From Candidatus Hodarchaeota archaeon (GTDB lineage: Archaea > Asgardarchaeota > Heimdallarchaeia > Hodarchaeales > Hodarchaeaceae): 25,830 nucleotides of DNA. The first letter of the stretch is position 1. Every line of letters begins with the position of its first letter. The stretch is taken from positions 1-25,830 of the forward strand of contig JAEOTQ010000187.1 of the NCBI GenBank assembly GCA_016839785.1. The letters are read 5' to 3'. Shown here piece by piece: positions 3,077 to 25,735 of this stretch. The notes beneath the pieces were generated by a model, which worked only from the letters and a program-made list of their open reading frames with translations, made no database searches and was not told the origin of the DNA. Position numbers and translations under genes: made by a program.

Positions 3077-3284
3077 TCTATAAACCTTCCATATCCTCAC
3101 AATTCCGTGTTTTAATTTCTGGAATGATGAGTAATCACTGGGACAGATGAGAAAGGGTTTTTTACTTAAGAGTAGTGTTCTTTATCTCGCTATGCACCAC
3201 AAAGGGTACGGAGGGTTTGTTACTACAACGGGTAGCACATAAGATTTAATCAGGTAGAATTTGTATCCGAGTACGAAAGTGGCT

Positions 3285-4082: not shown

Positions 4083-4117
4083 TCTAATTCATCCTATCAG
4101 GTTAAAGATCAGTTTGA

Positions 4118-5369: not shown

Positions 5370-6665
5370 CTATTTAGCATAGTTTTTCTGACTCAAGATT
5401 TTTCTAACGACTTGATGAGTGCCATATGCTACACCCTCAGTCATAAACCAACCTGCATTACCTTTAAAACCGTCTCCTACAAAATTCAAGTTCGGAAATA
5501 CCTCGGAGAAATTTTTATTATCTGCTCCTTGCATTGTATTATTCACTGGCCAATCCCGATGGAAAGTATGCACACATAATTCATCTTCCTCCTGAAGAGA
5601 GGGAAATAGTTCAAAAATCTCATCCCTTGCGTGTTTTGTAGCAGTCACTATATTCTTGGATCCAAAAATCTGGTGAGTCAGAAAGAGATGATATCCTTTT
5701 GGTGCTAATTCTGGGGAGATTAAAGTGGGTTCTACAGCTCCTTTTACAAAATTACAATCAGGAAATTGCGCCACAGTAGATTTTTTTAATAAAGAAGCTT
5801 TTGATTTGAAAGCAAATCCTCCTCCCTTTGCAACAGGTGATGAAGGTAAACGAAAATCAAATTTACTTGTGTCTAGAATAGTGTTGATTTGATTGACACC
5901 TAAATTTAGAACAAACTCCTTTGCTTTTACCTCGGTTAATTCATTTGTTCGTGTATTACGAACAACTCCTGCAGTTATTTCAGAACCATTGTTTTCTAGT
6001 GAAATGAGTTCGTGATTTTTATGCAGAATCACGTCATTTCTCTGTGAGAAGCTGATTAAGTTGTCAACTACCCGTTTACAACCTCCAATAGGTACACCCG
6101 CTTTTCCACTCTTGAATAGACGATCTAAGAATTGATACATTGTAGAAACGGTCATTTCTGAGATATCTAAACTTAGTGCGAACCCTGTAACGGCATTGAA
6201 GAACTTGAAGATTTGGGGATCATCAGTTTTTGACGACAGAAACTCATGAAATGTTATTGACTTATTAGGAACCTGATCACGAGTTAATAGTAGCTTCCTA
6301 AACATGAAATACCTTTGCTTCCAGCTTGGAAAGGCACGAAAGATACCCCAGAATCTTCTATGACTTATTGGATTACGGTTGGTCCAATACCATGTAGTAA
6401 AATTATGTGTATCCACAATTTTTACAGGTAAGGTCAAATCTTTTAAGAGTGTTTGACCGAGGATTCCTCTATGAGAATGTGGTATCATATGAACAGCGCC
6501 AGAAGGAATCTCAAACCCATCGAGCTTATGTGTTGTAAATCGCCCACCAAAAAAAGGCAAACGTTCTAACAGATAAACAGATTTTCCCTGTTGAGACAAT
6601 AGTGCCGCAGTTAGTAATCCTCCGAGACCACCTCCAGCAATTACTGCATCGTATTTATGAATCAT
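5370..6665 (-). CDS. FAD-dependent oxidoreductase, phytoene-desaturase-like archaeal family
   Basis: YDAVIAGGGLGGL Rossmann motif, ER-x4-GGRFT, GAVHMIPH, C-terminal VGDG...EG. Start likely ATG 6665, overlapping the ferredoxin stop (TGATG) with GGAGGG upstream. Confidence 0.85.
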   Translation of the reverse strand: MIHKYDAVIAGGGLGGLLTAALLSQQGKSVYLLERLPFFGGRFTTHKLDGFEIPSGAVHMIPHSHRGILGQTLLKDLTLPVKIVDTHNFTTWYWTNRNPISHRRFWGIFRAFPSWKQRYFMFRKLLLTRDQVPNKSITFHEFLSSKTDDPQIFKFFNAVTGFALSLDISEMTVSTMYQFLDRLFKSGKAGVPIGGCKRVVDNLISFSQRNDVILHKNHELISLENNGSEITAGVVRNTRTNELTEVKAKEFVLNLGVNQINTILDTSKFDFRLPSSPVAKGGGFAFKSKASLLKKSTVAQFPDCNFVKGAVEPTLISPELAPKGYHLFLTHQIFGSKNIVTATKHARDEIFELFPSLQEEDELCVHTFHRDWPVNNTMQGADNKNFSEVFPNLNFVGDGFKGNAGWFMTEGVAYGTHQVVRKILSQKNYAK

Positions 6666-6853
6666 CACGAATCCCTCCATGTTGCACGTATTGCATTTAC
6701 TGGACAATTATTGATACAACGACGACATTTATTGCACTTATTTAAAAAATGTGATAACCCTTCAACTTTAAATCCTCTAACAGGACAGATAAGTTCACAA
6801 TAGGCGCAACCTACACATACCTCAATATCAATTTCGATGATTTCTATCACCAA
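6665..6853 (-). CDS. 2[4Fe-4S] ferredoxin
   Basis: CVGCAYCELICP and CNKCRRCINNCP; translationally coupled to the oxidoreductase. Confidence 0.92.
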   Translation of the reverse strand: MVIEIIEIDIEVCVGCAYCELICPVRGFKVEGLSHFLNKCNKCRRCINNCPVNAIRATWRDS

Positions 6854-7126
6854 TATTAATTTTGACTTTTTAAACTACAGAATTCCTTATTAAAATCTAT
6901 TTATAGTTACTTCTATGCTAAAGCTCTAAATCGGCCAATTCTGTAACAATAAATTGGATACCCCAAGTTTACCCTTATACAAAACTGATAAACTATTTTT
7001 TACCTTCTAATACCCATGAAATAGTCAAAATTACTTGTTAAATTCGAAATATTTATTTAACTTCTAAATGAAAACCCAATAGTAAGTATTTAAGTCATAA
7101 AAAAGTCCGGTTTTAACGAGGTATGA

Positions 7127-7960
7127 GTGGTAAAAATGGCGTCGAAATTAAGTGTTCTTGGAATCGGTTTAGCAATTATTGGAATTCTAGTCTTTTCATT
7201 ATTTAATATTGTATGGATCGTTTTTCCGCCTTTTGGGGGAAGAACATCGGACGTTACTAACGAAGTGACAATTTCTGCTGGTACATCCGATGGTGAAGCC
7301 TTAGTAGGTACTGTACCCGCATCTCCGTTAATGTTAAATCTAAAGGTTGTTTTCATCTTCTCTGCAGATAATGCTTACTCATGTGATTTTCAATTATTTC
7401 TAAAAAATGACAATTACCCGCACCCTGGAGCGGCTCTTGAAGGTACACTCAGAAGCTACGATAAACCAGACGGAACATCTGGTAAACAAATTTCTCTGTC
7501 ATTTTTTGATCCTTTGTCCATAGGAGAGTCATTTGATATTTATATCAAAGTTAATAACTATGGATCCTCAACAATCAGAATTTTGACTCGTCGTGTTGTG
7601 GTGGTTCAATTCCTAGGAGTTCTTACACCGATTCTACTCTTGTTAAGTGGAGCTATTGTAGCTGTGGTAGGTTTAAGACAAGGAAAAGCACCAAAGCCGA
7701 AACGTAGAAAAGCTACTCCAGCCAGTGGATGGGAACCCACTCTCCAATGGGGTGGTGGATCGAGTGGAGCCAAACCCAGTACCAATAAGAAAAGACCAAA
7801 AATGGCTATTTCCTCAACAAAACCAAAATCTTCTCAAAAGAAGACTGTTGTGAAAAAAGCAGTGCCGAAAGGAGGAGCCCAAGCTGGATGTAAGTTTTGT
7901 GGAAAATCAGTCCCCAGCAATGCGTTCTTCTGCCCACATTGTTATGGAAAATTACGATAG
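7127..7960 (+). CDS. Two-TM membrane protein with Lys-rich tail and C-terminal zinc ribbon
   Basis: Hydrophobic segments at the N-terminus and ~aa 158-183, beta-rich loop between them, CKFC-x10-CPHC at the end. Start may be ATG 7136. Confidence 0.75.
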   Translation: MVKMASKLSVLGIGLAIIGILVFSLFNIVWIVFPPFGGRTSDVTNEVTISAGTSDGEALVGTVPASPLMLNLKVVFIFSADNAYSCDFQLFLKNDNYPHPGAALEGTLRSYDKPDGTSGKQISLSFFDPLSIGESFDIYIKVNNYGSSTIRILTRRVVVVQFLGVLTPILLLLSGAIVAVVGLRQGKAPKPKRRKATPASGWEPTLQWGGGSSGAKPSTNKKRPKMAISSTKPKSSQKKTVVKKAVPKGGAQAGCKFCGKSVPSNAFFCPHCYGKLR

Positions 7961-9340: not shown

Positions 9341-11791
9341 TTAAGATTCAATCTTTAGAGATTTTCGCAATTGCAGGAGAAAAATGATTGTAACTGCAAT
9401 TATTGATGCAAGTGGAAGGAGATTGAAAAAAATAAGAGTAAAAGGATTGGAGTCAGATGAGAGAGGATCTGTTCCCATTTGAAATTCGATTCCATCGTTC
9501 CATCCATCGTCATCAGTATCAAAATCCCTTGGATCAGTACCTAAAGTATATTCCTGGAGATTGGACAATCCATCATAATCTAAATCTTTATTTGCATCGT
9601 CAAATCCAGCTAATAGTCCATTTTGGTATTCATAGAGATTTGGCATACCATCAGCGTCTTTATCGTCATAGGAATCATTATGATTTCCATTCAATAAATG
9701 TTGAAATTCATAGTCGTCTGGAATCAGATCACCATCTGTATCCTTGATGCGAGGATTAGTACCAAATACAAACTCAAGAAAATTCATCAAATTATCATTA
9801 TCAGGATCTTCAAATCTATCTTTGAAATAACTTGGATTTAAATTGTATAATCGCTCCCATCGATCAGACATTCCATCAAAATCTATATCAGTAACATTCC
9901 ATAACTTAATAGTTCCATCGGTAGATGAAGAAACAAGTATCTGCCCTGTTGTAGTATAAGAAAGGCTCACAACCGAAGAATTATGGCTTAAAATCCTCAA
10001 CATGAACTGTGTTGTTTCAACATCCCACACAACTATAGTACTATCTTCAGAGCCAGAGGCTAAGGTGAAACCGTCATAATTAAAACTTACAGCTGGAACA
10101 GAGCCACTGTGACCTTGTAATGTTTCTTTCAAAATACCTCTCTCCACTTCCCATAATTTAACGGTCATGTCAAGCGAACCAGAGGCGAGGAGGTTGCCAT
10201 TAGGATTGAAAGCAACATCTAAAACACCAGCAGTATGATTTTGTAGGTTATGGAGTATTTCTCCATTGCTAGTATTCCAGATTTTGATTGTCTTATCGAG
10301 AGAACCTGAGGCTAGGAGACTATCATCAGGATTAAACTCCACAGACTCGACCGAATCAGTGTGGTTAGTCAATGAAAACAGAATTTGACCAGTGGCAACA
10401 TTCCAAAGCAATATTTTTCCGTCAGCAGATCCTGATGCTAATATAATCCCACTAGAACTGATGGATAGGCTTAAAACAGAGGCAGTATGGCCTATGTCAC
10501 TTCTAATTAAATCACCGGAAGTAACATTCCATAAATAGATGTTACCATCTGATGAACCAGCAGTCAGTAAATCTCCTTTAGGGTGAAGTACAACACACAG
10601 GATTGGTTCGGTAAGACCTGTCAATGATTTAATATACAACCCTGTGTCAATATCCCATATACGAATACTTGAATCAGAGGAAACAGATGCTAAAATTTTG
10701 TCGTTTTGTGCGATATCTATGTCCCATACGTGTGAGGAATGTCCTTCTAATGTATAGATTAAAGGATCGGCTATTAACTCATCGAGAGCTGCAGATGCAT
10801 TAATTAAGCCATAACCATACATTGGGTCCATTCCAATATCTCCCAGATCAGTGCTAGTATCATGAAGAATCTCTCTTATTGATTCGATTGGTAAAGAAGG
10901 GTTTATCGAAAGCATAAGAGCAATCACACCTGAAACTAAGGGAGCTGCATAGGAAGTTCCTGAACCATTTACAATTGAAGTATTGTAACCGGTTATAGAA
11001 TAAACATCCTTTCCTGGAGCACAAATCTCATTTTCCGCGCCATATCCAGAAAAATAGGCCAATTTTTGAGAACTGGTTACAGCGGATACAGCAATCACTT
11101 CACTATAATTACCTGGATAAGTAACCTTACCTGAATGATTCCCAGTCACTCCTACAATTATAACGCCAGCTTCATAAGCACGACGGATTGATTCATAAAC
11201 ATAAATTGGTGGAACTCCCCTAGCTTCAAGAGAAAGATTAATGATCTTTGCCCCGTTTAGGACTGCATAATCAATAGCCTCAACAAGTTTCGGCCAGTCA
11301 TCTTCAGTAAAACTGAGGTCGGAACGTAGGAATCTTAAGGACATTATCTTGACATTTGGAGCAACTCCAACAAATATATCATTATCATCATCGGCAGCAA
11401 TTAATCCTGCAATAAATGTACCGTGTTTACTGCCAATTGTATTGGGAGGAGGGAAGGGATTATTGTCATTATCCTGAAAATCCCACCCCATAACATCATC
11501 AACATAACCATTTCCATCATCATCTTTCCCATTACTACTAATCTCACCTAGATTCTTCCAACTGGAATTTATCAAATCTGGATGACCCAAATCGATACCT
11601 GAATCAATAACCGCAACAATAATGTTCGGAGTGCCTTGGGTATACTCCCATGCAGCTGGAATACCCACTTCTTCAATATTCCAATAATAAGATGTAGGTG
11701 AGGCGCAAATAGAAATGGGGTGAATCAATATGCTCAAAAATAATATTGTCCAAATAAAAGAAATTAAATTTCTCCTACAAGAACGGCTCAT
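9341..11791 (-). CDS. Membrane-anchored S8 subtilase fused to a 7-blade WD40 propeller and DxDxDG Ca-binding repeats
   Basis: Triad motifs VAVIDSG, HGTFIAG, GTSYAAP; seven GH...W(D/N/E) repeats; repeated D-x-D-x-D-G-x-x-(D/N)-x-x-E; N-terminal signal and C-terminal TM plus basic tail. Start probably ATG 11791 (GAGGAG upstream); track gives 11812. Confidence 0.9.
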   Translation of the reverse strand: MSRSCRRNLISFIWTILFLSILIHPISICASPTSYYWNIEEVGIPAAWEYTQGTPNIIVAVIDSGIDLGHPDLINSSWKNLGEISSNGKDDDGNGYVDDVMGWDFQDNDNNPFPPPNTIGSKHGTFIAGLIAADDDNDIFVGVAPNVKIMSLRFLRSDLSFTEDDWPKLVEAIDYAVLNGAKIINLSLEARGVPPIYVYESIRRAYEAGVIIVGVTGNHSGKVTYPGNYSEVIAVSAVTSSQKLAYFSGYGAENEICAPGKDVYSITGYNTSIVNGSGTSYAAPLVSGVIALMLSINPSLPIESIREILHDTSTDLGDIGMDPMYGYGLINASAALDELIADPLIYTLEGHSSHVWDIDIAQNDKILASVSSDSSIRIWDIDTGLYIKSLTGLTEPILCVVLHPKGDLLTAGSSDGNIYLWNVTSGDLIRSDIGHTASVLSLSISSSGIILASGSADGKILLWNVATGQILFSLTNHTDSVESVEFNPDDSLLASGSLDKTIKIWNTSNGEILHNLQNHTAGVLDVAFNPNGNLLASGSLDMTVKLWEVERGILKETLQGHSGSVPAVSFNYDGFTLASGSEDSTIVVWDVETTQFMLRILSHNSSVVSLSYTTTGQILVSSSTDGTIKLWNVTDIDFDGMSDRWERLYNLNPSYFKDRFEDPDNDNLMNFLEFVFGTNPRIKDTDGDLIPDDYEFQHLLNGNHNDSYDDKDADGMPNLYEYQNGLLAGFDDANKDLDYDGLSNLQEYTLGTDPRDFDTDDDGWNDGIEFQMGTDPLSSDSNPFTLIFFNLLPLASIIAVTIIFLLQLRKSLKIES

Positions 11792-11798
11792 TAGGAAA

Positions 11799-13130
11799 CT
11801 ATAGCTCCTCAATCTTTATTTGAATTGTTAAATCCTCTGCTTTTCGTTTAATGAAATCAAGACCATAAGTCGGTTTTCGAATAGAGAAAACCATTTGCCA
11901 TGGATCTACAAAAGATTCTTCTTCAACCTTCGTAAACTCATGGCAGAAGGAGCGAAAATTAAAATTTGGATCGTATCTAAGTAAATATCTTTTGGGGGGA
12001 CGAAATTTTTCAATGGCTTTAAGCACGGGTTCGACATTTTCCTCTGCGGAGATGGAAACTAATTTATATTCTGGAAAATGTTTTTTCAGGAGTTCTTTCC
12101 GTATTTTAAGTTGATCCTCTGACAATAAGTCTATTTTATTAATAACTAAAACACGATTATTTTGAGGGATAATTTCATTTACAGTATTAATAGTAACGTT
12201 CAATTTCTGAAGAATTAAATCTAGTGAAGATTCACTACCATCAATAACTATCAAAATAATATCTGCAGCTAAACTTTCTTCTAGAGTGGAACGGAAAGAA
12301 TCTATTAAAAAAGTAGGTAAATCTTCTATAAATCCTACAGTATCTGTAACGAAAATTTTCAAGTCGTCTAATTGAAAACTCCTGATGCGGGTATCTAGTG
12401 TTTCAAAAAGTCGTGAACTGACACTTGCTGCGTCGGTTTTTGTCAAAGCATTCAACAGTGTCGATTTTCCAGCAGATGTATAACCCACAATACTCACATA
12501 CACACTATCGTGATGAAATCTCATGCGGTTAATTCTTCGTTCCACACGTTGTTGTTTCAAAGAGGCTAGCTTTCCCTTTAGGTAAGCCTCACGTTTCTTT
12601 GTTCCTGCATCAAAATCGTGTAATGGATTTTCTCCTGTTCCCCGAAAACCTGCACGCTCTGTATGCCATGCTCCCTCTATGCTTAGCCGATTCATCAATC
12701 TTAATCTTTGTCTTGGACTTTCATATTTTTGCTGAGCTAGTTGAATCTGAATTTTAGCTTCTTCTGTCATTGCTCTAAGTGCAAAAATCTCGAGAACTAA
12801 CTCAAATTTATCAAGTATCAAACATTCCAGTTTCTTCTCCAGATTTATGTGCTGTTTAGCTGATAGATGAACTCCAACAATTATGAAAGTATCAACTAGC
12901 TCTTCAATCTTGGACTTCACTTCAATTAATCTACCTGGTGAAAAGAGATAATTAGGGTTATTTATTCTCAATTGAACCTCTTCTATGATCTTATAATTTG
13001 AGGACTTCACAAGTAGTCGCATTTCATGATTAAGAAACAATTCATTCTTTGTGTTCGGATATGGAAGTAATAATATGCATTCCCCTCTTGGTTCCATTAA
13101 ATCTGTTTCCATTTGTTTTAAAATTTTCAC
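11799..13130 (-). CDS. hflX: Ribosome-associated GTPase HflX
   Basis: LEIFALRAMTEEAKIQIQLAQ, G1 GYTSAGKST, LFETLD, DTVGFI-x-x-LP, F-x-STLEE, NKID. Confidence 0.93.
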   Translation of the reverse strand: MKILKQMETDLMEPRGECILLLPYPNTKNELFLNHEMRLLVKSSNYKIIEEVQLRINNPNYLFSPGRLIEVKSKIEELVDTFIIVGVHLSAKQHINLEKKLECLILDKFELVLEIFALRAMTEEAKIQIQLAQQKYESPRQRLRLMNRLSIEGAWHTERAGFRGTGENPLHDFDAGTKKREAYLKGKLASLKQQRVERRINRMRFHHDSVYVSIVGYTSAGKSTLLNALTKTDAASVSSRLFETLDTRIRSFQLDDLKIFVTDTVGFIEDLPTFLIDSFRSTLEESLAADIILIVIDGSESSLDLILQKLNVTINTVNEIIPQNNRVLVINKIDLLSEDQLKIRKELLKKHFPEYKLVSISAEENVEPVLKAIEKFRPPKRYLLRYDPNFNFRSFCHEFTKVEEESFVDPWQMVFSIRKPTYGLDFIKRKAEDLTIQIKIEEL

Positions 13131-16292: not shown

Positions 16293-18713
16293 CTATGCTA
16301 AATCAATTTGAATTGTCTTATGGCTTGAGTTCCCAAAAATATCAACGACATTCACCCAGATATTAAATTCTCTAAACTCAGAATATTCATGATGAACAGA
16401 AACAGTTACACTGCTCTCAATTTTTTTTCTTTTTATTTGTCGATTAGAACACCATTCTATCGCTGCGACTGATTTATCGTAATCCCAGTCAATTTCCCAA
16501 TAATCTATTATATCTATAAATGAATAATTCTGTAATTCATGCATGGAAGAAGAATACTGCATGTTTATTAACGTTAATACTATTTCATTTCCTTGGGTGA
16601 GGGGATGTTTCTCAATTTTTATATCGAAATTAAAAATATCCTCTTCTTCCGAATCCTGGTTTCCGTTCTCATCTATTATTCTATGAAACTCAAATGGTGA
16701 CCTATCAACTACCTGTAAGATTCTCTTCCGAATTTCGCTAATGGATAACTTTCCGATGTCAATACCTAGCCATTTTCTTCTAGATTTTTCCGCCATTGCA
16801 AGTGTAGTTCCCGAGCCTGCAAAGAAATCAGCTACGATATCACCTTCTGAAGTACTAATGTCAATTACTCTTTTTAATAACGCCTCAGAATTTTCTGTTG
16901 GGTAGAGAGTTCTTTTTACTTTTTGGTATCCCGCAATGTCAATCCAAAGATTGTCATGTAAGTATTCAATTTCAGCTTTATTTTGGCCTCTTCTAACACT
17001 TTTCTTAATCAAATCATGGTGAAAGTTAGCCTCATTACTTCCACGATAGACGTACAATGAATCAGAATGCACTATTAAGTGAGATTGTTGATTCAACTGT
17101 TTATCTGACAAATTTTTCTTCATACGACGGATTATAAATTCAATTACAAAATTTTCTTGACCAAAAGTATCATCTAAGATTTTCTTCGCGTAATGTCCGA
17201 AATGATAATCAAATCTAACAAAAATAAAACCATCTAGACGTAATAATGGTCTCATCAGGGTAACTCGCCTCCGAAACCAAGTTTTAAAATCATCTATTGG
17301 CGTATTACTCAAAAATAAGTTTTTATAGGCAAACGTTTTAATTGAATTATCCGTAACCTTTTTCTCTATTAAATTTGAGTCACTAATACTCTGAACTGGA
17401 ATATAAATCGATTCATTGTACCCAGTATAAAAGGGAGGATCGATATAGATCAGTTTTATGGCCTGATAGTATTCTTCTTTCAGTAAACGCAAAACTTTTA
17501 GACAATCTCCCTGTATTAACCTATTGTTCAATAAATTCTTAGCTTGAGTCTCTATGTTCCGATCATTTGGATAGAATGAAATAGGTACTAACGTGGAAGA
17601 TTTACTGTTGGAGGAAGGTAGAAATTCCGTTTGGTCTACAGAAAGAGGATTCTTAGTCAATCTTATCTCTGAATCAATAAAATTTCTGTGGAACTTTACA
17701 GAATAACTAATGTTTTCTCTAGAAAGCTCATATTTTATCAATTCGAGGACCTGTTTATCCTGTATCATACATATCCAATTCAAATTATAGTTTGAAGCCT
17801 CTATTAAAGAACTAGTAGTTCTCGGGTTGATCACCATCACAATCTGATTTGAACTCAGTAACACTTTGAATAGTCGTGTATAGTATGAACCTTGGTGCTT
17901 AGACAGTGTTGAATTATCTAAATCGAGCCAGTTAGAGTCTACTATTTGCCCAATTTTGGGGGGTACCCAATATTCAGGGTTCCCTCTCCTATTTAACCTA
18001 ATCTGTCCTTTCTCACATAGTTCTAGAATTGATTTTTGCCTCAATTTCCAGTGTGTCCCACTTGGGGGATCCAATAGCATCTTTTTTCCATTAATTAGAA
18101 AATATTTAGGGGTTCCCTGGCCTTTAGAGACAAACGAGTGCCAGTATCCTCCACTTTCTTTTTCATCGTATACTGGATTTATTTTTCGAGTTTTTGAAGT
18201 ACTATACAATAAGAAATAATCGGTCCTCTCAAAAAAAGCATTTTTTTTGGAATAGTGTATTTTTAGGGGGGAATTTATCAAAACCTCGTTCATAAAATTC
18301 TCCTGATGAAACACTGAATCTAGAATTTGCTTAACATATGCTTTTATTGTACCATTCACTTTAACAGCTAAAAAACCATCCATCCTCAAAATAGAATACG
18401 AGATTTTCAAGATATGAGTGATTTCATTCAAAAATTCGTAAAGAGAGGTTTTATCATGAAATTTAAGTGAGGGATTCAAATTATAAATCTCTTTGACTTT
18501 ACCAATTTGATTTACTTCGATGTCAGGTGGATAATAATGGTGAGAAATGTCATATATAATCAATCTTGGATCCTTTTTCTTTTGTTGAACAAGACTATCC
18601 ACGAGATTAGCTGTTTCTGGGCATATTATTATCCGATTCTCTGAAAAATCATCTGATCCACGTTTTGAATCAGAATCTTCCTTGATTTCACTCGGATTGT
18701 CCATTGAACTCAT
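16293..18713 (-). CDS. Beta-class (type III Mod-like) DNA methyltransferase with a degenerate N-terminal duplicate domain
   Basis: C-half has LIQGDCL, IYIDPPF (D425), YPTE, DFFAGSGTT (D629), WLGID. N-half repeats the scaffold without catalytic or SAM-binding motifs. C-terminal IDYWEIDWDY...VDIFGN domain is typical of Mod-like proteins. Confidence 0.88.
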   Translation of the reverse strand: MSSMDNPSEIKEDSDSKRGSDDFSENRIIICPETANLVDSLVQQKKKDPRLIIYDISHHYYPPDIEVNQIGKVKEIYNLNPSLKFHDKTSLYEFLNEITHILKISYSILRMDGFLAVKVNGTIKAYVKQILDSVFHQENFMNEVLINSPLKIHYSKKNAFFERTDYFLLYSTSKTRKINPVYDEKESGGYWHSFVSKGQGTPKYFLINGKKMLLDPPSGTHWKLRQKSILELCEKGQIRLNRRGNPEYWVPPKIGQIVDSNWLDLDNSTLSKHQGSYYTRLFKVLLSSNQIVMVINPRTTSSLIEASNYNLNWICMIQDKQVLELIKYELSRENISYSVKFHRNFIDSEIRLTKNPLSVDQTEFLPSSNSKSSTLVPISFYPNDRNIETQAKNLLNNRLIQGDCLKVLRLLKEEYYQAIKLIYIDPPFYTGYNESIYIPVQSISDSNLIEKKVTDNSIKTFAYKNLFLSNTPIDDFKTWFRRRVTLMRPLLRLDGFIFVRFDYHFGHYAKKILDDTFGQENFVIEFIIRRMKKNLSDKQLNQQSHLIVHSDSLYVYRGSNEANFHHDLIKKSVRRGQNKAEIEYLHDNLWIDIAGYQKVKRTLYPTENSEALLKRVIDISTSEGDIVADFFAGSGTTLAMAEKSRRKWLGIDIGKLSISEIRKRILQVVDRSPFEFHRIIDENGNQDSEEEDIFNFDIKIEKHPLTQGNEIVLTLINMQYSSSMHELQNYSFIDIIDYWEIDWDYDKSVAAIEWCSNRQIKRKKIESSVTVSVHHEYSEFREFNIWVNVVDIFGNSSHKTIQIDLA

Positions 18714-18743
18714 CTCTCGATCTTGAGCTTTCTACGAATTCGT

Positions 18744-19778
18744 TTATCTTTTGTCATTAGTTCTTTTCTCTAATTTGTAATTCAATGCTGCAAAATAATT
18801 GAATATAAGGCGTAGATTTCCAGAACTCCGGAGAAGTAGTTCTAAGTCATAAACAGAAATTTTTTGATTATTACCTTTTAATTTGTCTAGTATGTCCCCA
18901 ATTTTTGGCAAATTGACTTCAAAATTATCTTTAAGTTGCTTGGGATAATTCTTCACCCTTAAAGACTTATCTAGATTCTCTAACCCTCCACAAAGAGTAT
19001 CTATTTGAGTTAAGACCCTTATCACTACTGCTTTTTCTTCCCCATCTTCAATCCTATGATGGGTTCCCCTCCATTTTGTCTTGTTACCGATTCCCCGTTC
19101 ACCTCCATGAGGAAGCAAAATCATATTGGAGGCAGTAATTCTCCAGCGAGAAGAATCACACCCATCCACAACTGTGAGTACTTCAGGTAAAATACTAGGA
19201 GCTCCAACCCCCAAAGCCCATATTTTACAATTCTCACTAGAAGAATATTCCTTTAATTTAGCTTTAAATTCAGTGAGGGCAGTAAAAAGTCTGATTTTAT
19301 ATCCAGTTCCTCCTCTCATTAGCGGTACAAGACGACCAATGAAGTTCCAGTCAGATAATCCAGATTCTGAAACAATTTGATCCAAAAGATGTAATTGGTT
19401 GTAGGGGATAACTGGTTGGATTTCGTAGGGGAGTAATTCTAAATAGTTCGCTAGGATATCTTCATCAGGATAGTCTAGTGTTATCTTAATTATATCAGGA
19501 TCTTGGTCTGTGAGTTCACGATAATAGACTTTAAGCTGTCCAAGGCTTGTTTTTATCTTCTTCTTCCGATTAATGGCAGAAAAAGCTCCAGAATCACAAA
19601 CTAGTTGACCATCCCATTCTAAATAGTTACGAATTCCTTCTTTCTTTATTGTTTCGAATAAATTTGGACTTTCCATTAAATCTATGGCTGAGATCATTAA
19701 AGCATCAGGTTTTACAATCCAATCATATTTCCATGGTCGTATGCGAGCACTGATGGGAGTTCCTAATGCAAAACTCAT
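18744..19778 (-). CDS. TGT-fold (DpdA-like) base-exchange protein 1
   Basis: VCDSGAFS, TLDYP, WALGVG, GCDSSRW in TGT order and spacing; no CxCxxC Zn motif and no PUA domain. Confidence 0.75.
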   Translation of the reverse strand: MSFALGTPISARIRPWKYDWIVKPDALMISAIDLMESPNLFETIKKEGIRNYLEWDGQLVCDSGAFSAINRKKKIKTSLGQLKVYYRELTDQDPDIIKITLDYPDEDILANYLELLPYEIQPVIPYNQLHLLDQIVSESGLSDWNFIGRLVPLMRGGTGYKIRLFTALTEFKAKLKEYSSSENCKIWALGVGAPSILPEVLTVVDGCDSSRWRITASNMILLPHGGERGIGNKTKWRGTHHRIEDGEEKAVVIRVLTQIDTLCGGLENLDKSLRVKNYPKQLKDNFEVNLPKIGDILDKLKGNNQKISVYDLELLLRSSGNLRLIFNYFAALNYKLEKRTNDKR

Positions 19779-19790
19779 TTTATCTCTTCC

Positions 19791-20264
19791 TCATTTCTCT
19801 AAACTAGAATTAACTATTGAATTAAGAAAATCCAAGAGTTTACGCTGACCAATCCCTAATCCACCCATATTCTCGATTCTCACCTTACTGTTAATGGCAT
19901 CATCCAATCCCTCAACACTTGCTAAATAATCTCTACCCATAAGTACATAAATATGTGAAAAAGATTCAATTTCGTGCCAATTTAGAATTTTCTGGACAAT
20001 TTGGGATTGTAGCTGTTTGGCCAGAAGCTTCGTCATTTTTAAATCATAATTGGTGATTTGATCACTGGATCGTAAGAATCCATATTTTGCTGAAATGATA
20101 CCTAGTTTCAGATTATCTGGCCATCTATTTTCTCTTTTTGCTTTATTTATGACTTGAAACATTGGACCCTTATATGCCTCCTCTGCTTTCAACGCATGAT
20201 ATTTGAGTACCTCTGATTTTTTCTTCCCACAGGATATAATTAGGAGGTATTTCGGCGATGACAT
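19791..20264 (-). CDS. DUF6884/YaaA-like protein (possible DpdC-like partner)
   Basis: LLIISCGKKK...AEEAYKG-x-x-F...IISAKYG...YDLKM...GRDY...GLGIGQR. Confidence 0.72.
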   Translation of the reverse strand: MSSPKYLLIISCGKKKSEVLKYHALKAEEAYKGPMFQVINKAKRENRWPDNLKLGIISAKYGFLRSSDQITNYDLKMTKLLAKQLQSQIVQKILNWHEIESFSHIYVLMGRDYLASVEGLDDAINSKVRIENMGGLGIGQRKLLDFLNSIVNSSLEK

Positions 20265-20379
20265 ATAATTTCACCTTTAATCTCGCACTGTAAAATTTAG
20301 GATAAAATAATATTCGATTACGTTATTATTTATCTAAAAGAAAGTTGATCGATAATAAAGATTTAGGGGAAATTTTCTC

Positions 20380-21318
20380 TTGAGATTATATTTAGGTGTT
20401 GTAAATGGGTTTTTACCTTGGGTTTATGAAGAACGAATCCATCAATACATGCGTAAGAAGGAGTTTGGAATATTATTTTCATTTTGGCAATTTAGAAAAT
20501 ATATTCATAAAATTAAATCAGTTGGATTGCATGACTATTTTTCATTCGATGGCCCAATAATGATTGACTCTGGTGCCTATAGTGCACATCATTCAGGTCA
20601 ACCTATCTCAGTAGAAGATTATCTTAACTTTCTTAAGAATATAGAGGTCAATGACTGCGATTCAATTGTGAATCTTGATATTATCGGACATCGTAGAAAG
20701 TCATATAAGAATTGGTTAACATTGATTCATAGAATTAGGCATCCTATTCTTCCAGTCGTTCATTTTCCCAATATCAACTTATCAGATTACTCAGTTCCGA
20801 ATATTGGATTGGGAGGAATGGTCTCTTCACTTAAAATCAATGAGAAGGGTAGTGTTTATGACGTTGCAGCTTGGGTAGCCAAATTCCGCTCTTTATCTAA
20901 GCAAAAATTTCATGGATTTGGATTAGGGAGTCCCTTTCACCAAATGGCTTTTAAAAAGCATCTAGAGTCAATAGACTGGATTGGATGGAGAAGAAACGCT
21001 GCAATTGGAGATTGTTACACACCAGAAGGTTCGAGATCTGTCCCTAAGGTCAGATTATCAAACAAATCGCGACGATGGTTGACGCTTGAGGTTTTCGATT
21101 CATACAAACCACCTTTCATTGATAAGTTACCTTCGTTACAACTTCCAGGAAATCAAGGATGGATTAACCGGGCTTTATGGAACGTCTGGATGTTTCTTAC
21201 CGCCCAAAATTTCACCCTAACTTCAAAGAAATCATCTTACGTAAGATCAATTGAGAAACGAATGGAGAACTTAATCTCACATGGACATTTAAGAGGCTTT
21301 GATTATTATTTCAACTAA
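20380..21318 (+). CDS. TGT-fold (DpdA-like) base-exchange protein 2
   Basis: MIDSGAYS, NLDIIG, LPVVH, IGLGGMV, FHGFGLG, SIDWIGW; TTG start with GGGGAA upstream; no Zn motif or PUA domain. Confidence 0.8.
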   Translation: MRLYLGVVNGFLPWVYEERIHQYMRKKEFGILFSFWQFRKYIHKIKSVGLHDYFSFDGPIMIDSGAYSAHHSGQPISVEDYLNFLKNIEVNDCDSIVNLDIIGHRRKSYKNWLTLIHRIRHPILPVVHFPNINLSDYSVPNIGLGGMVSSLKINEKGSVYDVAAWVAKFRSLSKQKFHGFGLGSPFHQMAFKKHLESIDWIGWRRNAAIGDCYTPEGSRSVPKVRLSNKSRRWLTLEVFDSYKPPFIDKLPSLQLPGNQGWINRALWNVWMFLTAQNFTLTSKKSSYVRSIEKRMENLISHGHLRGFDYYFN

Positions 21319-21376
21319 TGATATAATTAGAATTCGCAAAAATTCATAAATATATCAATAAAAATTTAACCAGTTT

Positions 21377-24166
21377 CTACATGGATTCGTTGTCTTTTAA
21401 GTCAAAATAATTTTCAATCTGCCTCACAATCGGGGATAACATTATGAGGGTGTATAATTTCTGTAAATTCTCCTCAATTTGTATGATCTGGAAGGCCTTT
21501 TCAATTTTTTTCAATAAACCATTTCTAATGTCAGAAAATTCTGATTTATCAACCGTAGTGGTATTTTCTGTTAGAAAAATGGAATATTGGATTCTTAAAA
21601 ATCGCTCTATATTAATCTGGGGCAGAGATTTATGTAGAAAATCACAGACATCCTTGAAAAGTTGATTCTGATTTGAAGAAGTGAGAATCTGATCCTCAAA
21701 ATAACTCACGTAAACCATAACTTTGGCGACTCTTTCCTCAATGAACATGATGATTGGTTGGAATTCATTTGTAATTTTCTCAAGGGAGTGTAGAAATATT
21801 AAATAATCAGCTATCCGTGCCAGAAGAACATGATTATTCAATATTTTAGGAATGGGAAAATTAGAGAGAGATTCACCAAAAAATTCTAGTTGAGATCCCT
21901 TTTTTTTCCCCATCCAAGAGAACCAATAGAACGAGACTTTTGATTGTAAAAGGAGTAAAAGGGCTTTCAGTTTTGGAGTTGAATTTCTCACTTCTTGAAT
22001 GAAATATACATCCTGAGCTGCAAACCATTCGGTACAACTGTATGCAAAATGAGTTTTTCGTGCCCTTTGAGGAGTAATCAGTTTTGGAGAGAGAAACATT
22101 TCTTTTTTTCTAGGACGATTAATGTAAGGAGGATGATCTAATGAATTTTCCATTGCTATTTGGTAGTGATCAAGATGGTTCTTAATATTTGGAACCATCG
22201 ATAAGTCAACCTCCTTCCTTACCAGATATAAAACTCGTCGCTCAGTATAAACTCTTGTTGAATAAGGTCTTATTGATGAACTTTTGTATAAGGGGCGTAA
22301 ATATTTTTTTTCGTCATTAGTGAAGGTCTTAATGGTATTTTGATCAGTTACATTGTTAAGATCAAACACAAATATTCCACGATTCTCCCATATTGTTGGG
22401 TATCCATATTTCTCAATTTGGCGTTTAGTAATTTTATTTAGGCCTGTAATTAAGCCTTCTTTCACTCTATAAGTTGATTCTCTAATTGGGGTACTAACTT
22501 TTGTTAATTTTTTCAGGATAAAGGATACATCCGCAGGTAGAAAGTGAAAATAATCATCCCAATCATTTAGGGTAAGATTTTTCTGATTAATTTGGTAAAT
22601 GAGTTGATCAGACATTTTATCCAGTAGCTTTTCTCTTTGAGAAATTATGTTGGTATAAAAAACACAATTAATAGAGGGATTTTGCATTTCTAATTTCTTT
22701 ACGGTTAAAATACTGGAGTGTATCCCATGAGCTCCCTCGAATAAGCGATTATCTCCAAAATCGATAAATTCTAATATGAAAGTTTCTTCAAAAATCCTTT
22801 TACGAAGTTTAGAAGCTCCCGAGGCCGTCAACCAATAACTTGTTGCTAAGAATGATACAATCCCTCTTGGTTTAGCTAGATTGATGGCTAGCTGAAAAAA
22901 TAAATACCAAATATCGAGCTTACCTTCATAGTATGTTGGTAGAGCAACAGAGTATTTCCTAAATATCTCTTTATTATCACTTTCTCCAATGTAAGGAGGA
23001 TTTGTTAGGACTAGGGAAAATCGTGGTTTTTTCAACATTTCAGGGAAAAGATTTTCCCAATCCAACAGTAAGGCATCCCCAATTTTTAAATTACACTGGA
23101 ATTTACTATTGTAAGATAAGTTTGTTTTTATTTTTTTTACCCGAAGAGCAATATAAAGAAAAAACCGTGCTTTTGTAAAAGGAATCACAGAGGGATCTAT
23201 ATCCACTCCATACAAAGCTTTTGGAAATATCAAATGCATTAAGATATAGAATTCAATTTCTGCTGTATCTTTGATCTTTGTAAGGTCAATAGTTTCCCAT
23301 ATTTCTTGGGAACGACTGGTATAGAGATCTATTGTAATTGATTCGTCTAAATTTCTAGCTTTCTCTATAATTAGAGAATATAATACTAATAATTCATCAA
23401 CAACGCTTTCTAAGAATTGTCCAGTACCAACAGCTGGATCTAGGACTGTTAAATTCCTTAATGCTTCATAAAGTCTTAAAATGCCATTTTTGTCAAGAGA
23501 TTTAATAAAGGATGTCCAAGTTTCCCGGGAATATGTATCGTTGAGCCCCATTTGATCCATCAGTGCTGTTCTTACTGAATAGCGGGAGATATAAACGGTT
23601 AGTTCAACAGGTGAATAATACACTCCCCCAATCCTTTTTTTTTTGGACGAAATCAACCATTCATATAATGATCCCAAAAAAACTCCATATTTTTCAAACT
23701 TTATTTGATCAAGTACTGTTAACAATCCTGATGATCCGAATATTACATTAGTACTTGAATCGGATAAAGAAAAGAAATTATTGGGAAACCGAGATTTCTT
23801 TTGAAGAAGTTTGATATCAATAAATATCGCTGATTTACATCCTCGTAACCTCCCAAAATGTGAATCAATGCAGATATGATTATCATTCAATGTGGATAGT
23901 CTAAGTAGTAATGAATTCATAAAATTATTATATGTATTGTAAGGAATACGAGGATCTCTTTTTTCAATCAAGTGAAACATCGATGTAAAAAAGTTTTCAT
24001 CATTATTGAAATACAAATTTTTCTGTAATCCCCACAAAACCGATACTTGCATGATATATTGATTTATGAACTCTCTATTAGAACCATCAATGGGAGAACT
24101 GGCTGAGAGAAAATTATCTCTTATTTTGCTCAGTAGAATTAACAGATTTTTCCATTGATCACTCAT
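21377..24166 (-). CDS. Gamma-class N6-adenine DNA methyltransferase (Eco57I/type IIG-like, TaqI-like TRD), apparently without nuclease domain
   Basis: GVYYSP, VLDPAVGTGQF (motif I), LYGVDID, TNPPY (motif IV), C-terminal PKLI...LLQSK...FPIP. Confidence 0.88.
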   Translation of the reverse strand: MSDQWKNLLILLSKIRDNFLSASSPIDGSNREFINQYIMQVSVLWGLQKNLYFNNDENFFTSMFHLIEKRDPRIPYNTYNNFMNSLLLRLSTLNDNHICIDSHFGRLRGCKSAIFIDIKLLQKKSRFPNNFFSLSDSSTNVIFGSSGLLTVLDQIKFEKYGVFLGSLYEWLISSKKKRIGGVYYSPVELTVYISRYSVRTALMDQMGLNDTYSRETWTSFIKSLDKNGILRLYEALRNLTVLDPAVGTGQFLESVVDELLVLYSLIIEKARNLDESITIDLYTSRSQEIWETIDLTKIKDTAEIEFYILMHLIFPKALYGVDIDPSVIPFTKARFFLYIALRVKKIKTNLSYNSKFQCNLKIGDALLLDWENLFPEMLKKPRFSLVLTNPPYIGESDNKEIFRKYSVALPTYYEGKLDIWYLFFQLAINLAKPRGIVSFLATSYWLTASGASKLRKRIFEETFILEFIDFGDNRLFEGAHGIHSSILTVKKLEMQNPSINCVFYTNIISQREKLLDKMSDQLIYQINQKNLTLNDWDDYFHFLPADVSFILKKLTKVSTPIRESTYRVKEGLITGLNKITKRQIEKYGYPTIWENRGIFVFDLNNVTDQNTIKTFTNDEKKYLRPLYKSSSIRPYSTRVYTERRVLYLVRKEVDLSMVPNIKNHLDHYQIAMENSLDHPPYINRPRKKEMFLSPKLITPQRARKTHFAYSCTEWFAAQDVYFIQEVRNSTPKLKALLLLLQSKVSFYWFSWMGKKKGSQLEFFGESLSNFPIPKILNNHVLLARIADYLIFLHSLEKITNEFQPIIMFIEERVAKVMVYVSYFEDQILTSSNQNQLFKDVCDFLHKSLPQINIERFLRIQYSIFLTENTTTVDKSEFSDIRNGLLKKIEKAFQIIQIEENLQKLYTLIMLSPIVRQIENYFDLKDNESM

Positions 24167-24411: not shown

Positions 24412-24601
24412 GGGTGGGTGAAATGCCAATGAGTGCCGTAATCCAAGTCGTTCTCCTTCTCGAGTGATGTCAATTTGATTTACACTGGAAAAAAAGCGGA
24501 CTGGTGGAAACATAACGCGAAACCCAAGGGTCTCTGAGACCGTGATAAGAAGACGTGTCAGGTTTCCGTATTACGGCACTACAACCACCAAGGTTTTGGC
24601 A
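24412..24601 (+). ncRNA. Candidate IS110 bridge RNA (structured left-end RNA)
   Basis: 11-bp stem AGTGCCGTAAT (24432-24442) / ATTACGGCACT (24570-24580) encloses two hairpins, each with a large internal loop; lies directly upstream of the transposase ATG. Ends are approximate. Confidence 0.6.
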
Positions 24602-25735
24602 ATGAAAGTATGCGGCTTAGATGTTCATAAATCCCGCTGTTGGGTGCATATTCGGGACGAGAATGGTGTAATTTGTGAAACCACCTTTTTACGGACTCCT
24701 GAAGGCCTTGAGACACTATACACATTAGTATCAGACCATCAAGTAACAAAAATTGTGATGGAATCTACCAACAGTTACTGGCTTCCGATTTATCGGTTAC
24801 TACATAAAAATTTTGACTGTTATGTCATTAACGCGTACCAAAGAAAGGTACTCGGCAAACATAAAACAGATACTCGCGATGCAGAAGATCTTGCACGTTG
24901 GGGACTGTTAGATGTCGTTACTGCTTCGTACGTCCCATCTTTAGAAATTCAAGAGCTACGACAACTAGTACGCACTAGAACGAATGTACTCCAAACTAGG
25001 ACGGCCGTTGTCAGTCAGCTCAAAGCTCTACTGGAAGGTCAATGCTCTGGGCTCACTAGTGAATTGAAAAGCCTTGAAAGCAAGTATGCACAACTATATC
25101 TGCATGACTGGCGTAAATCTCATCCACAGCCTTCCTTCCAAGACTGGATTAGTCTGCAATCTCACACCAGTACCCGTGAAGCGCTTCTTAGACGTAAAAA
25201 AGTTCTTAGTTATTGGTGGGAACGACCTTTGTCTTCATCCATGCAAAGTCTAGTAGATCTTCATCTGAGACAGTATGAATTTTACAGTCAAGAAATAAAA
25301 AATTTAGATAAGCTCATTAGTGATGTTGTTAGGAGTTCAGGTCTTCAAAAAACAGTAGATCTTATGCAATCTATACCTGGACTAGGATTCATTACTTGTA
25401 CCACTGTAGCATGCGAGCTAGGTTCTTCTAACAGATTTAGAACAGGTCGTGAAGCAGCTGCAAGCTGTGGTTTAACTCCTCGACTCCATGGGTCAGCAGG
25501 TCGGATCAGATCAGGACGAATCACCAAACATGGTCCAAGTAGTGTACGAAGAGCTCTGTATATCACCTGTAAGACTGTAATTCAGCGTTCACCATGGCAT
25601 CGTGACTTTTTCCAGCGTATTAAGAGTCGACGAGGAGGAATGATAGCATTAGTCGCTCTCTGTCGGAAGTTAGTTGAGTTATGTTGGAAACTCTGGCACA
25701 CAAATACGGCCTATCGATGTAATATTTCTAATTGA
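24602..25735 (+). CDS. IS110-family transposase/recombinase
   Basis: DEDD domain CGLDVHK, VMEST, KTDTRDA; coiled-coil LRQLVRTR; C-terminal SIPGLG and GLTPRLHGSAG (catalytic Ser), RITKHG, ALCRKL. Start ATG 24602. Confidence 0.95.
   Translation: MKVCGLDVHKSRCWVHIRDENGVICETTFLRTPEGLETLYTLVSDHQVTKIVMESTNSYWLPIYRLLHKNFDCYVINAYQRKVLGKHKTDTRDAEDLARWGLLDVVTASYVPSLEIQELRQLVRTRTNVLQTRTAVVSQLKALLEGQCSGLTSELKSLESKYAQLYLHDWRKSHPQPSFQDWISLQSHTSTREALLRRKKVLSYWWERPLSSSMQSLVDLHLRQYEFYSQEIKNLDKLISDVVRSSGLQKTVDLMQSIPGLGFITCTTVACELGSSNRFRTGREAAASCGLTPRLHGSAGRIRSGRITKHGPSSVRRALYITCKTVIQRSPWHRDFFQRIKSRRGGMIALVALCRKLVELCWKLWHTNTAYRCNISN

Follow-up and report, generated by a model that had tools for sequence, protein, structure and literature searches.

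Gene content and layout of the locus

Positions 16293..24166 of contig JAEOTQ010000187.1, from a Candidatus Hodarchaeota archaeon of the Asgard order Hodarchaeales, carry a block of five genes that code for two proteins with the fold of the tRNA-guanine transglycosylases (TGT), here named TGT1 and TGT2, a small protein of the DUF6884/YaaA kind, and two DNA methylases. The whole stretch of DNA that was analysed, 25,830 nt, is referred to below as the window, and its open reading frames (ORFs) were listed with their coordinates. Judging from sequence-based evidence, the reading that we favour, to which we give a rough probability of 0.45, is that the block may encode a resident, restriction-less system that exchanges guanine in DNA, adds methyl marks, and is fed by salvaged preQ0.

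Three of the genes follow each other closely on the reverse strand: the DUF6884/YaaA-like gene (P0003, 157 aa; 19791-20264), the gene of TGT1 (P0001, 344 aa; 18744-19778) after a gap of 12 bp, and, 30 bp further on, the gene of a Mod-like beta-class N6/N4 DNA methylase (P0134, 806 aa; 16293-18713). TGT2 (P0002, 312 aa; 20380-21318, forward strand) is divergent from the DUF6884 gene across a spacer of 115 bp (20265-20379) that presumably holds both promoters. At its other end TGT2 converges, at a distance of 58 bp, on a reverse-strand gene (P0135, 929 aa; 21377-24166) that Pfam identifies as a gamma-class N6-adenine methylase of the Eco57I/MmeI kind, with an NPPY motif and a TaqI_C specificity domain. 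The TTG start codon assigned to TGT2 agrees with the MKLYLG start of its homologues in the alignment. A scan for bacterial-type promoters and terminators found no more sites than in shuffled sequences, and such a scan is uninformative for an archaeal host.

This DNA had been described before from its letters alone, and that description, the original prediction, saw in the block a compact island that combines deazaguanine insertion with methylation. The gene positions that it gave, the gaps of 12, 30 and 115 bp and the convergence of TGT2 with its neighbour were reproduced by the ORF list, and Pfam agrees with its family labels for the methylases, the DUF6884/YaaA-like gene and an IS110 transposase. 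It had also stated that the block has no nuclease, and as far as tested with Pfam and PADLOC none of the five proteins contains a nuclease domain. Likewise, the dpdB, dpdD-K and que genes that it reported as missing are absent from the window according to Pfam searches of the window ORFs and PADLOC searches of the five proteins: with PADLOC, applied to the five proteins only, there was no DpdB or DpdD-K and just partial DpdC matches were obtained, and by Pfam the remaining ORFs in the window that reach 80 aa fall into housekeeping families.

TGT1 and TGT2: fold and active site

The two TGT-like proteins escape the models in common use. Both score below the gathering cut-off of the Pfam TGT family (PF01702; 11.5 bits for TGT1 and 11.8 for TGT2, cut-off 26.3) and far below the curated cut-off of the arcTGT model TIGR00432 (14.7 and 25.8 bits, cut-off 350); PADLOC has no model that matches either of them at E values up to 1, and the Pfam family DUF6610, equated with DpdA4 in a passage of a phage paper, gave no match at E values up to 10. 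Sequence-only searches of the PDB with P0001, P0002 and the TGT1 profile returned nothing significant, and the TGT2 profile found arcTGT only, at E 0.0035.

The relationship becomes apparent from structure and from profiles. AlphaFold models built from alignments of 29 TGT1 and 37 TGT2 homologues, with a predicted local distance difference test score of 83.9 and 90.3, respectively, were compared by VIA-align with 48,161 PDB representatives. The same five structures head the list for both proteins: arcTGT 1iq8 (Z 18.4, root-mean-square deviation 4.0 over 266 aligned for TGT1; Z 24.5, 3.2 over 281 for TGT2), DpdA 7ui4 (Z 16.5, 4.9 over 276; Z 20.2, 3.5 over 266), bacterial TGT 3unt (Z 16.2 and 19.2), Cap10 9ntn_B (14.0 and 17.7) and QTRT2 6fv5 (13.5 and 18.3), and unrelated TIM barrels reach a Z of at most 12.6 for TGT1 and 12.3 for TGT2. 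Foldseek, run with the TGT1 model, gave a TGT match at E ~4e-7. The phage family phrog_887, annotated as queuine tRNA-ribosyltransferase, is matched by TGT2 at 5.9e-19 and by TGT1 at 1.3e-3, and the two proteins are paralogous to each other (BLASTP, 25% identity, E 8e-8; hhalign, 98%, E 2.7e-13). The TGT-like labels of the original prediction, which Pfam did not confirm, are borne out in this way by the fold, by PHROG 887 and by the profile-profile paralogy.

The putative active site of TGT1 consists of D62 (in DSGAF), D102 (LDYP) and D208 (DGCDS), and that of TGT2 of D63 (DSGAY), D100 (NLDIIG) and D199 (SIDWIGWRRNAA); these residues are invariant in the 29 and 37 sequences, respectively. The DSG motif and the nucleophile were aligned to arcTGT and bacterial TGT, and the middle Asp was placed by its spacing and by the hhalign alignment of TGT1 with TGT2. 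In the hidden Markov model (HMM) alignment D199 falls on the nucleophile Asp of TGT, with svDWiGWRRNAA of TGT2 opposite mfDcvmPTRNAR of bacterial TGT, which places RRNAA on TRNAR. The passages of PMC10164549 that deal with catalysis describe three Asp residues as invariant in TGT and DpdA (D95, D130 and D256 of DpdA), assign to them the roles of general acid/base in the DSG motif, base-binding residue and nucleophile, and report that D95A and D256A abolish DpdA activity. This triad, on which DpdA depends, corresponds to D62/D102/D208 of TGT1 and D63/D100/D199 of TGT2.

Two features set these proteins apart from the tRNA-modifying members of the superfamily. A regular-expression search for the zinc motif CxCxxC found it in none of 11 TGT1, 12 TGT2 and 4 viral DpdA sequences, versus all five arcTGT catalytic domains and E. 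coli Tgt, and one TGT1 orthologue is entirely without cysteine. Likewise, no PUA, C2 or other C-terminal domain was detected in TGT1 or TGT2.

Distribution and synteny

For this part of the work 400 Asgard genomes were scored, 24 of which form the order; 21 are labelled as the same genus as the window's genome and two as a sister family. Orthologues of TGT1 (E 1e-125 or better) occur in 20 of the 21 same-genus genomes and in both sister-family genomes, and none was found in the remaining 376 Asgard genomes, where the best match (2.4e-19) is to other TGT-like genes or arcTGT. TGT2 is present in 19 of the 24 genomes of the order, including all five high-quality ones. A full-length Mod-like methylase was found in 19 of the 21 same-genus genomes, with only four partial matches elsewhere among the 400.

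Gene order was compared in 22 loci, one genome per species, all from this one order. The DUF6884 gene lies directly upstream of TGT1 in 20 of them, and the remaining two are contigs of 2.6 and 1.9 kb. The Mod-like methylase lies downstream of TGT1 in 18 loci; three contigs are too short, and one locus (L022) is without it despite a 10-kb flank. The linkage to a methylase, the absence of which from other genomes would have spoken against the original prediction, is conserved for the Mod-like gene. TGT2 is divergent and nearby in 15 loci, while three contigs end early and two are short. Beyond the Mod-like gene the relatives show the same succession of UPF0047, a 151-aa protein, TFIIB, a 143-aa protein, HflX and a subtilase. 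Identities across loci are 56-78% for TGT1, 49-70% for TGT2, 52-76% for the DUF6884 protein, 39-66% for the Mod-like methylase, 29-65% for the Eco57I-like methylase and 72-97% for TFIIB. In one locus (L016) an extra ORF of 533 aa, which has no Pfam match, is found between TGT1 and the methylase. In L022 the TGT1 match ends inside an open frame of 577 aa and the whole downstream syntenic block is missing over the 10 kb of flank, as if a rearrangement had its breakpoint within TGT1.

The GC content is 0.32-0.37 through the block and 0.32-0.40 in the remaining window, and only the IS110 gene deviates (0.43). Hence, the island of the original prediction is not what is found: the GC content does not deviate, the genes are near-universal in one order and absent elsewhere, and they are syntenic with housekeeping genes, such as those of TFIIB and HflX, and with the genes on the profilin side. 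The block is a vertically inherited, lineage-specific core locus of one Asgard order and not a mobile island.

Phylogeny and relatives of TGT1 and TGT2

A tree of 60 rows was calculated with IQ-TREE in quick mode under LG+C20, with support from the Shimodaira-Hasegawa-like approximate likelihood ratio test (SH-aLRT). It includes 11 TGT1, 12 TGT2, nine other Asgard TGT-like ORFs, five arcTGT catalytic domains, four viral DpdA, 18 unnamed representatives from a profile search, and E. coli Tgt as the root. The arcTGT sequences form a separate clade (99), and TGT1 and TGT2 fall into a clade (97) together with all four annotated viral DpdA; within it TGT2 belongs to a group with the DpdA of Queuovirinae (97) whose sister is TGT1 (81). 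The tree has long branches and comes from a quick search, resemblance to TGT2 guided the choice of its unnamed rows, and bacterial DpdA is not among its rows. When TGT1, TGT2 and arcTGT were constrained to one clade, the approximately unbiased (AU) test rejected the topology (delta log-likelihood 90.1, p-AU 0.0001). A grouping with the tRNA-modifying arcTGT, which would have spoken against the original prediction, is thus contradicted by both the tree and the AU test, and the assignment of TGT1 and TGT2 to the DpdA kind of TGT-superfamily members, not to arcTGT, is supported. The two proteins are old paralogues in the zinc-less, virus-type DpdA branch of the superfamily, in which the Asp triad has been retained.

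Searches with tblastn and TGT2 gave 76 phage records at 24-28% identity, annotated DpdA genes among them. Four viral records were inspected: three are phage genes with queC/queD/queE/folE around them, and one of the three carries the annotation of a DpdA 7-deazaguanosine-inserting enzyme; the fourth is ORF18 of Sulfolobus virus STSV1, which has no adjacent que genes. A scan of viral contigs with the TGT2 profile found no relatives. The named homologues of TGT1 (68 clusters) and TGT2 (63) are all "hypothetical protein" entries from Asgard metagenome-assembled genomes (MAGs) with Heimdall-, Hod-, "Prometh-" or "Thor" labels.

A third family of zinc-less paralogues (P0138, P0139, P0140; 280-307 aa) is ~30-32% identical to TGT1 and TGT2 and, because it is similarly identical to both, bridges the two. 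Its members are named from MAGs of Hodarchaeales, "Promethearchaeota" and "Thorarchaeota". The family was not found in the window's genome; P0139 matched only TGT2 orthologues in 83 class representatives, and a scan of metagenome contigs with it found no relatives.

Other families of the Heimdall class gave weaker matches to the TGT1 profile. Their members have 375-410 aa, most pass Pfam TGT, and they are found in defence-type contexts. Three such loci (L035, L036 and L039) were seen: one has UvrD, a PD-(D/E)xK nuclease, a TGT and an N6_N4 methylase; another has AIPR, a methylase, two TGT genes and a PLD nuclease; and a third has a TGT and GmrSD. N6_N4 methylases occur in two of the three, and L036 has two TGT-like genes in tandem. 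Another context of the Heimdall class is a DUF5591 gene with a TGT-like gene. Such loci are the sort of island that the original prediction had in mind, and the block in the window differs in kind from them.

The family to which TGT1 and TGT2 belong raises the question of whether their target is RNA. They could be a lineage-specific tRNA- or rRNA-guanine transglycosylase that works beside arcTGT, in which case the methylases would be unrelated neighbours. Housekeeping genes for RNA modification are typically conserved throughout an order as single, syntenic copies, as these genes are; arcTGT heads the structural matches of both proteins, and other Asgard TGT-like genes adjoin ArcS-type DUF5591 ORFs. 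Nevertheless, we consider this role quite improbable. A canonical arcTGT is present in 23 of the 24 genomes of the order, and the genome of the window has its own copy (641 aa, TGT+TGT_C2+PUA; C227:13421-15346) as well as an ArcS-type DUF5591 ORF of 675 aa (match at C155:10735-11208). That the genome already has these two genes, and that TGT1 and TGT2 are without tRNA-type domains, speaks for a target in DNA; neither PUA nor C2 nor any other RNA-binding extension is present. The tree and the AU test place both proteins with viral DpdA, which acts on DNA and shares their zinc-less state, and the fixed partner of the pair is of the YaaA type, described in the part of PMC11701544 devoted to DUF6884 as DNA-binding.

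The DUF6884 partner

P0003 matches Pfam DUF6884 (PF21818) with 49.3 bits (cut-off 30; 7.3e-13) and YaaA with 30.2 bits (cut-off 29.6; 4e-7), the latter over residues 21-84 of a 236-position profile. With PADLOC it matches PDC-M57A (9.3e-11), of the candidate system PDC-M57, for which the other four proteins gave no match, and DpdC (8.2e-6) over residues 16-75 of a 319-position profile. This 157-aa protein has no full-length DUF328 domain. The YaaA-like gene of the original prediction is, then, a short DUF6884/YaaA relative with a weak match to DpdC. The motifs SCxKxK (CxxxK; C12..K16) and (I/V)SAKYG are present without change in all 17 orthologues, and a genome search found P0003 to be the sole DUF6884 gene of the window's genome. 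No longer or fused forms of P0003 were found, a search that by its nature gives weak evidence. The DUF6884 part of PMC11701544 defines the motifs CxxxK and LSAxxG and describes the family as YaaA-like proteins with a positively charged cleft, and both DUF6884 and YaaA as DNA-binding.

The association between DUF6884 and TGT-like genes extends beyond the order. The TGT1 profile found a TGT-like ORF of 414-452 aa in five genomes from three families (G014, G016, G045, G317 and G324), and in all five a DUF6884-type match is located 0.35-4.5 kb away on the same contig. In the one such locus that was inspected the two genes are divergent neighbours, with a DUF6884 score below the cut-off. This pairing appears to be independent evidence for a functional tie between the two families. 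In one locus of G324 (L055, 1582-4193) a DUF6884-like ORF of 243 aa, a TGT-like ORF of 393 aa with the zinc motif and a small DUF5591-like ORF lie beside A-type ATP synthase genes, and many genomes of the family of G324 have DUF6884-like ORFs that are 230-280 aa long.

According to the same source (PMC11701544, in part), the DUF6884 member YfjM was one of the proteins recovered through their interaction with abasic and RNA-base lesions, and base flipping was predicted for it. This brings in DNA repair or base surveillance, in which the TGT-fold pair would remove or swap damaged guanines and the DUF6884 protein would handle the flipped base or the abasic intermediate, with no deazaguanine involved. 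The behaviour of the block as core genes suits maintenance better than defence, this role does not require QueC or QueE, both absent from the genus, and DpdA carries out guanine-for-guanine exchange in vitro (PMC10164549, in its enzymatic part). On the other hand, no repair enzyme of the TGT family was found in the literature cited here, the relatives in the tree that have an annotated activity are all DpdA of que-carrying phages, and the base-recognition Asp (D102 and D100) is kept, as in enzymes that act on guanine or 7-deazaguanine. Repair is, in our judgement, improbable as the function of the locus.

The methylases and the variable slot beside TGT2

P0134 matches Pfam N6_N4_Mtase (1.1e-38, residues 419-655) and PADLOC MTase_III (1.2e-53). 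In its translation the C-terminal half is intact, with DPPF and FAGSGTT; the N-terminal half is a degenerate copy with DISH for DPPF and INPRT for FAGSG, and residues 1-390 alone reach only 7.5e-4 with Pfam. The protein reads as a single-chain pseudo-dimer, with a decayed N-terminal copy and an intact C-terminal one. Neither the window nor those syntenic flanks that were examined contain a Res-like ORF of type III systems. P0135 matches Pfam Eco57I (4.6e-27), MmeI_Mtase and TaqI_C; residues 1-220 have no Pfam match, and the language-model features of residues 1-225, which are a lead only, resemble MmeI_hel and rarely MmeI_N.

The slot that is convergent with TGT2 is occupied by an Eco57I-like NPPY methylase in eight of the 22 loci and by a methylase with an SPPY motif in seven (L009, L010, L011, L013, L016 at 6068-7408, L022 and L025). 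The latter is of the N4-cytosine type, has 446 aa, is unrelated to P0135, and shows 67-76% mutual identity. As the SPPY methylase replaces the Eco57I-like gene, both sublineages have some kind of methylase next to TGT2. In L018 and L021 a Sir2-family gene stands between TGT2 and the Eco57I-like gene, in L018 together with helix-turn-helix genes.

This arrangement recalls a restriction-like defence, which the original prediction had offered as a speculative alternative: a TGT-fold protein would replace the nuclease and remove bases from foreign DNA on which the neighbouring genes have not set their methyl marks. Searches of the five proteins gave no nuclease domain, a methylase is always beside TGT2 while its family varies by lineage (Eco57I-like in eight loci, SPPY in seven), and the distant TGT-like genes of the Heimdall class sit with methylases and nucleases in defence-like loci. 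However, the block is distributed, arranged and composed like core genes and not like a defence island; both paralogues retain the two Asp residues, nucleophile and general acid/base, with which TGT and DpdA carry out transglycosylation; and the flanking methylase has been swapped with TGT2 unchanged, which is hard to reconcile with an effector that senses methylation. Such a defence seems to us highly improbable.

On the far side of the Eco57I-like gene an IS110-family transposase (397 aa; 24542-25735, forward strand; Pfam DEDD_Tnp_IS110 1.4e-23 and Transposase_20 1.7e-19) is a local insertion at the edge, outside the conserved block. It sits where the relatives have a 122-aa profilin-like gene beside the Eco57I-like gene, and its protein is unmatched in all 22 related loci; the 122-aa ORF upstream of the relatives' Eco57I-like gene matches Pfam Profilin in L018, L020 and L021 and has no Pfam match in L005. 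At the other end of the window, on the reverse strand, 1913-5245 hold a gene of S-adenosylmethionine synthetase, a gene of the purine/uridine phosphorylase family and a nucleoside-binding substrate-binding protein of an ATP-binding cassette transporter (PnrA/Bmp type), ~11-15 kb from the cluster, and 9341-11812 encode an 823-aa protein in which a subtilase is combined with a seven-blade WD40 propeller. In most related loci only the first ~350 residues, the subtilase part, are matched, so the WD40 portion varies.

Supply of preQ0

The original prediction had the system draw on a host pool of preQ0. The counts of QueC and QueE, given in the next section, speak against a de novo route to such a pool in the window's genus, and only salvage through a transporter of the YhhQ family is plausible. 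A match to the YhhQ/Vut_1 family (123.6 bits; C150:7018-7551) was found in the window's genome, the only genome checked for it, and one of the phage records inspected annotates a YhhQ gene as preQ0 transporter. The window's genome also has a PTPS/QueD-like ORF. An apparent QueC match on its contig C220 turned out to be a ThiI-family protein. Because the genus is without QueC and QueE, and yet keeps arcTGT, together with ArcS in the window's genome, it would have to import and scavenge preQ0; salvage in this lineage is plausible, and preQ0 is probably scavenged for archaeosine. This scavenging is a testable dependency of an uncultured lineage.

Proposed function

In the reading that we favour, TGT1 and TGT2 would act together on double-stranded DNA and replace its guanine by a 7-deazaguanine, for which preQ0 is the likeliest candidate. 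The preQ0 would be imported by the YhhQ-family transporter. The DUF6884 protein, once bound to the modified site, would act on the flipped base with its Cys-Lys pair, perhaps converting preQ0 to the amide in the manner of DpdC, which converts preQ0-DNA to 7-amido-7-deazaguanosine (ADG)-DNA. The Mod-like methylase and the occupant of the variable slot by TGT2 would add N6-methyladenine (m6A) or N4-methylcytosine (m4C) marks. These marks would be a constitutive modification of the chromosome, protective or epigenetic, and not one half of a restriction-modification pair, as would follow from the absence of a linked restriction partner. Of the deazaguanine-plus-methylation system that had been predicted, this keeps the DpdA kind, the DUF6884 protein and the linkage to the Mod-like gene, and gives up the island, the compactness and the de novo preQ0 pool.

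Several observations weigh against this proposal. With regard to the enzymes, the top structural match of TGT1 and TGT2 is arcTGT and not DpdA, and the match of P0003 to DpdC is only partial (residues 16-75). With regard to the substrate, of the 24 genomes of the order only one has a QueC score above the cut-off and only two have a full-length QueE-like match (E ~1e-30); the window's genus, with some genomes that are 96-99% complete, has neither. The QueC and QueE matches are confined to the sister family, in which QueE forms a cluster with two QueC-like ORFs. With regard to linkage, the block is not a strict operon: a gene of a major facilitator superfamily (MFS) transporter lies between TGT1 and the Mod-like methylase in eight loci, and a DUF362 gene lies between TGT2 and the DUF6884 gene in seven, interruptions that also take away the compactness of the system first described. 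TGT2 is ~13 kb from TGT1 in two genomes, and the complete chromosome of G064, from which L022 comes, has TGT2, the DUF6884 gene and a TGT1 match that ends at residue 294, and no Mod-like methylase. As a single order supplied all 22 loci, and synteny holds equally for the housekeeping genes at their flanks, the linkage may reflect shared ancestry alone. Furthermore, it would be unusual for near-universal and slowly evolving genes to serve the marking of self against non-self.

The same observations bear on a narrower version that does not exclude the proposal: the unit might consist of TGT1, TGT2 and the DUF6884 protein alone, with the methylases as orphans in a slowly rearranging region. In those eight loci TGT1 and the Mod-like gene are separated by the MFS gene, and G064 retains TGT2 and the DUF6884 gene without the Mod-like one. 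The Eco57I-like slot is variable, UPF0047, TFIIB and HflX are as syntenic as the methylases, and divergence is faster in both methylases (39-66% and 29-65% identity) than in TGT1 (56-78%). Against orphan methylases, the phyletic range of the Mod-like gene is as narrow as that of TGT1 and TGT2, and two other loci of the Heimdall class pair TGT-like genes with N6_N4 methylases. We regard this narrower unit as possible, if on balance unlikely.

A bolder version of the favoured reading is that in this whole Asgard order, the sister group of eukaryotes, the chromosomal DNA is constitutively hypermodified by a domesticated, virus-derived pair of DpdA type, with scavenged preQ0, finishing by the Cys-Lys pair of the DUF6884 protein and methylases that mark the same DNA. 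In its entirety this is rather doubtful. If it were true, it would be the first lineage-wide, non-island, restriction-less deazaguanine modification of DNA in cells. Modified DNA would mean a fixed non-canonical base in the genomes of these archaea, with consequences for their viruses, for restriction systems and for sequencing chemistries, and the block would then clearly exemplify how viral genes for DNA modification can be taken over to serve the cell.

Comparison with known systems

In the cited literature, as far as it was consulted, 7-deazaguanine in DNA is described from phages and from patchy bacterial Dpd islands (PMC10164549, bioRxiv 10.1101/2023.04.13.536721, PMC6884629). No report was found that links Asgard archaea with DpdA, or Hodarchaeales with a transglycosylase, in a literature search that covered main texts; the supplementary tables of the DpdA surveys (PMC6884629; bioRxiv 10.1101/2023.04.13.536721) lie outside it and could list archaeal homologues. 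What is new here is the presence of two highly diverged paralogues of the DpdA clade that standard models miss, their fixation as core genes of an archaeal order with no linked restriction genes, a DUF6884 partner in the place of DpdB and DpdC, and a methylase that appears to combine a dead and an active copy in a single chain.

The viral DpdA of Queuovirinae and STSV1 resemble TGT1 and TGT2 in being small single-domain proteins of the TGT fold (~270-320 aa) without CxCxxC, and in sharing a clade with them; the 24-28% identity of TGT2 and its match to phrog_887 belong to the same likeness. The three phage genes sit among queC/queD/queE/folE, whereas the STSV1 gene does not. In contrast to the viral genes, those described here are two diverged paralogues fixed in a cellular chromosome, beside DUF6884 and methylase genes and in a genus without QueC and QueE, and the phage profile only just picks up TGT1 (1.3e-3).

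With the Dpd system of Salmonella Montevideo (7UI4; PMC10164549, in the part on this system) the block has in common a DNA transglycosylase of the TGT fold, the Asp triad and a partner from the YaaA superfamily. In that system DpdA, DpdB and DpdC carry out modification and DpdD-K restriction, according to the same part of PMC10164549. The archaeal block has neither the DpdB ATPase nor DpdD-K nor the zinc motif, and has two transglycosylase paralogues versus one. Its 157-aa DUF6884 partner is unlike DpdC, a DUF328 protein that fits profiles of 312 and 319 positions, and the block is chromosomal, vertically inherited and order-wide, whereas Dpd is an island.

The tRNA-modifying enzymes offer a second comparison. 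arcTGT (TgtA, 1iq8), which acts with ArcS, is the best structural match and shares the DSG motif and the nucleophile Asp; however, it has a zinc site and the C2/PUA domains that bind tRNA, it forms its own clade, and the window's genome holds a separate canonical copy. Eukaryotic QTRT1/QTRT2 (6fv5) likewise consists of two paralogous subunits of the TGT fold, and QTRT2 is among the top five structures. TGT1 and TGT2 might likewise form a heterodimer; QTRT2 is non-catalytic according to the title of its PDB entry, whereas TGT1 and TGT2 both keep all three Asp residues, and no specific kinship emerged.

For P0134 the nearest known counterpart is the type III Mod subunit, as in EcoP15I Mod2, with which it shares the beta-class N6_N4 methylase domain and the MTase_III match (1.2e-53). 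The dead and active copies in one chain could mimic the Mod dimer. In contrast to EcoP15I Mod2, P0134 would be a single-chain pseudo-dimer; it has no Res nearby and is a core gene of one genus. Taken part by part, the superfamilies of all components of the locus are already known, and the closest kind of system is DpdA-based DNA modification.

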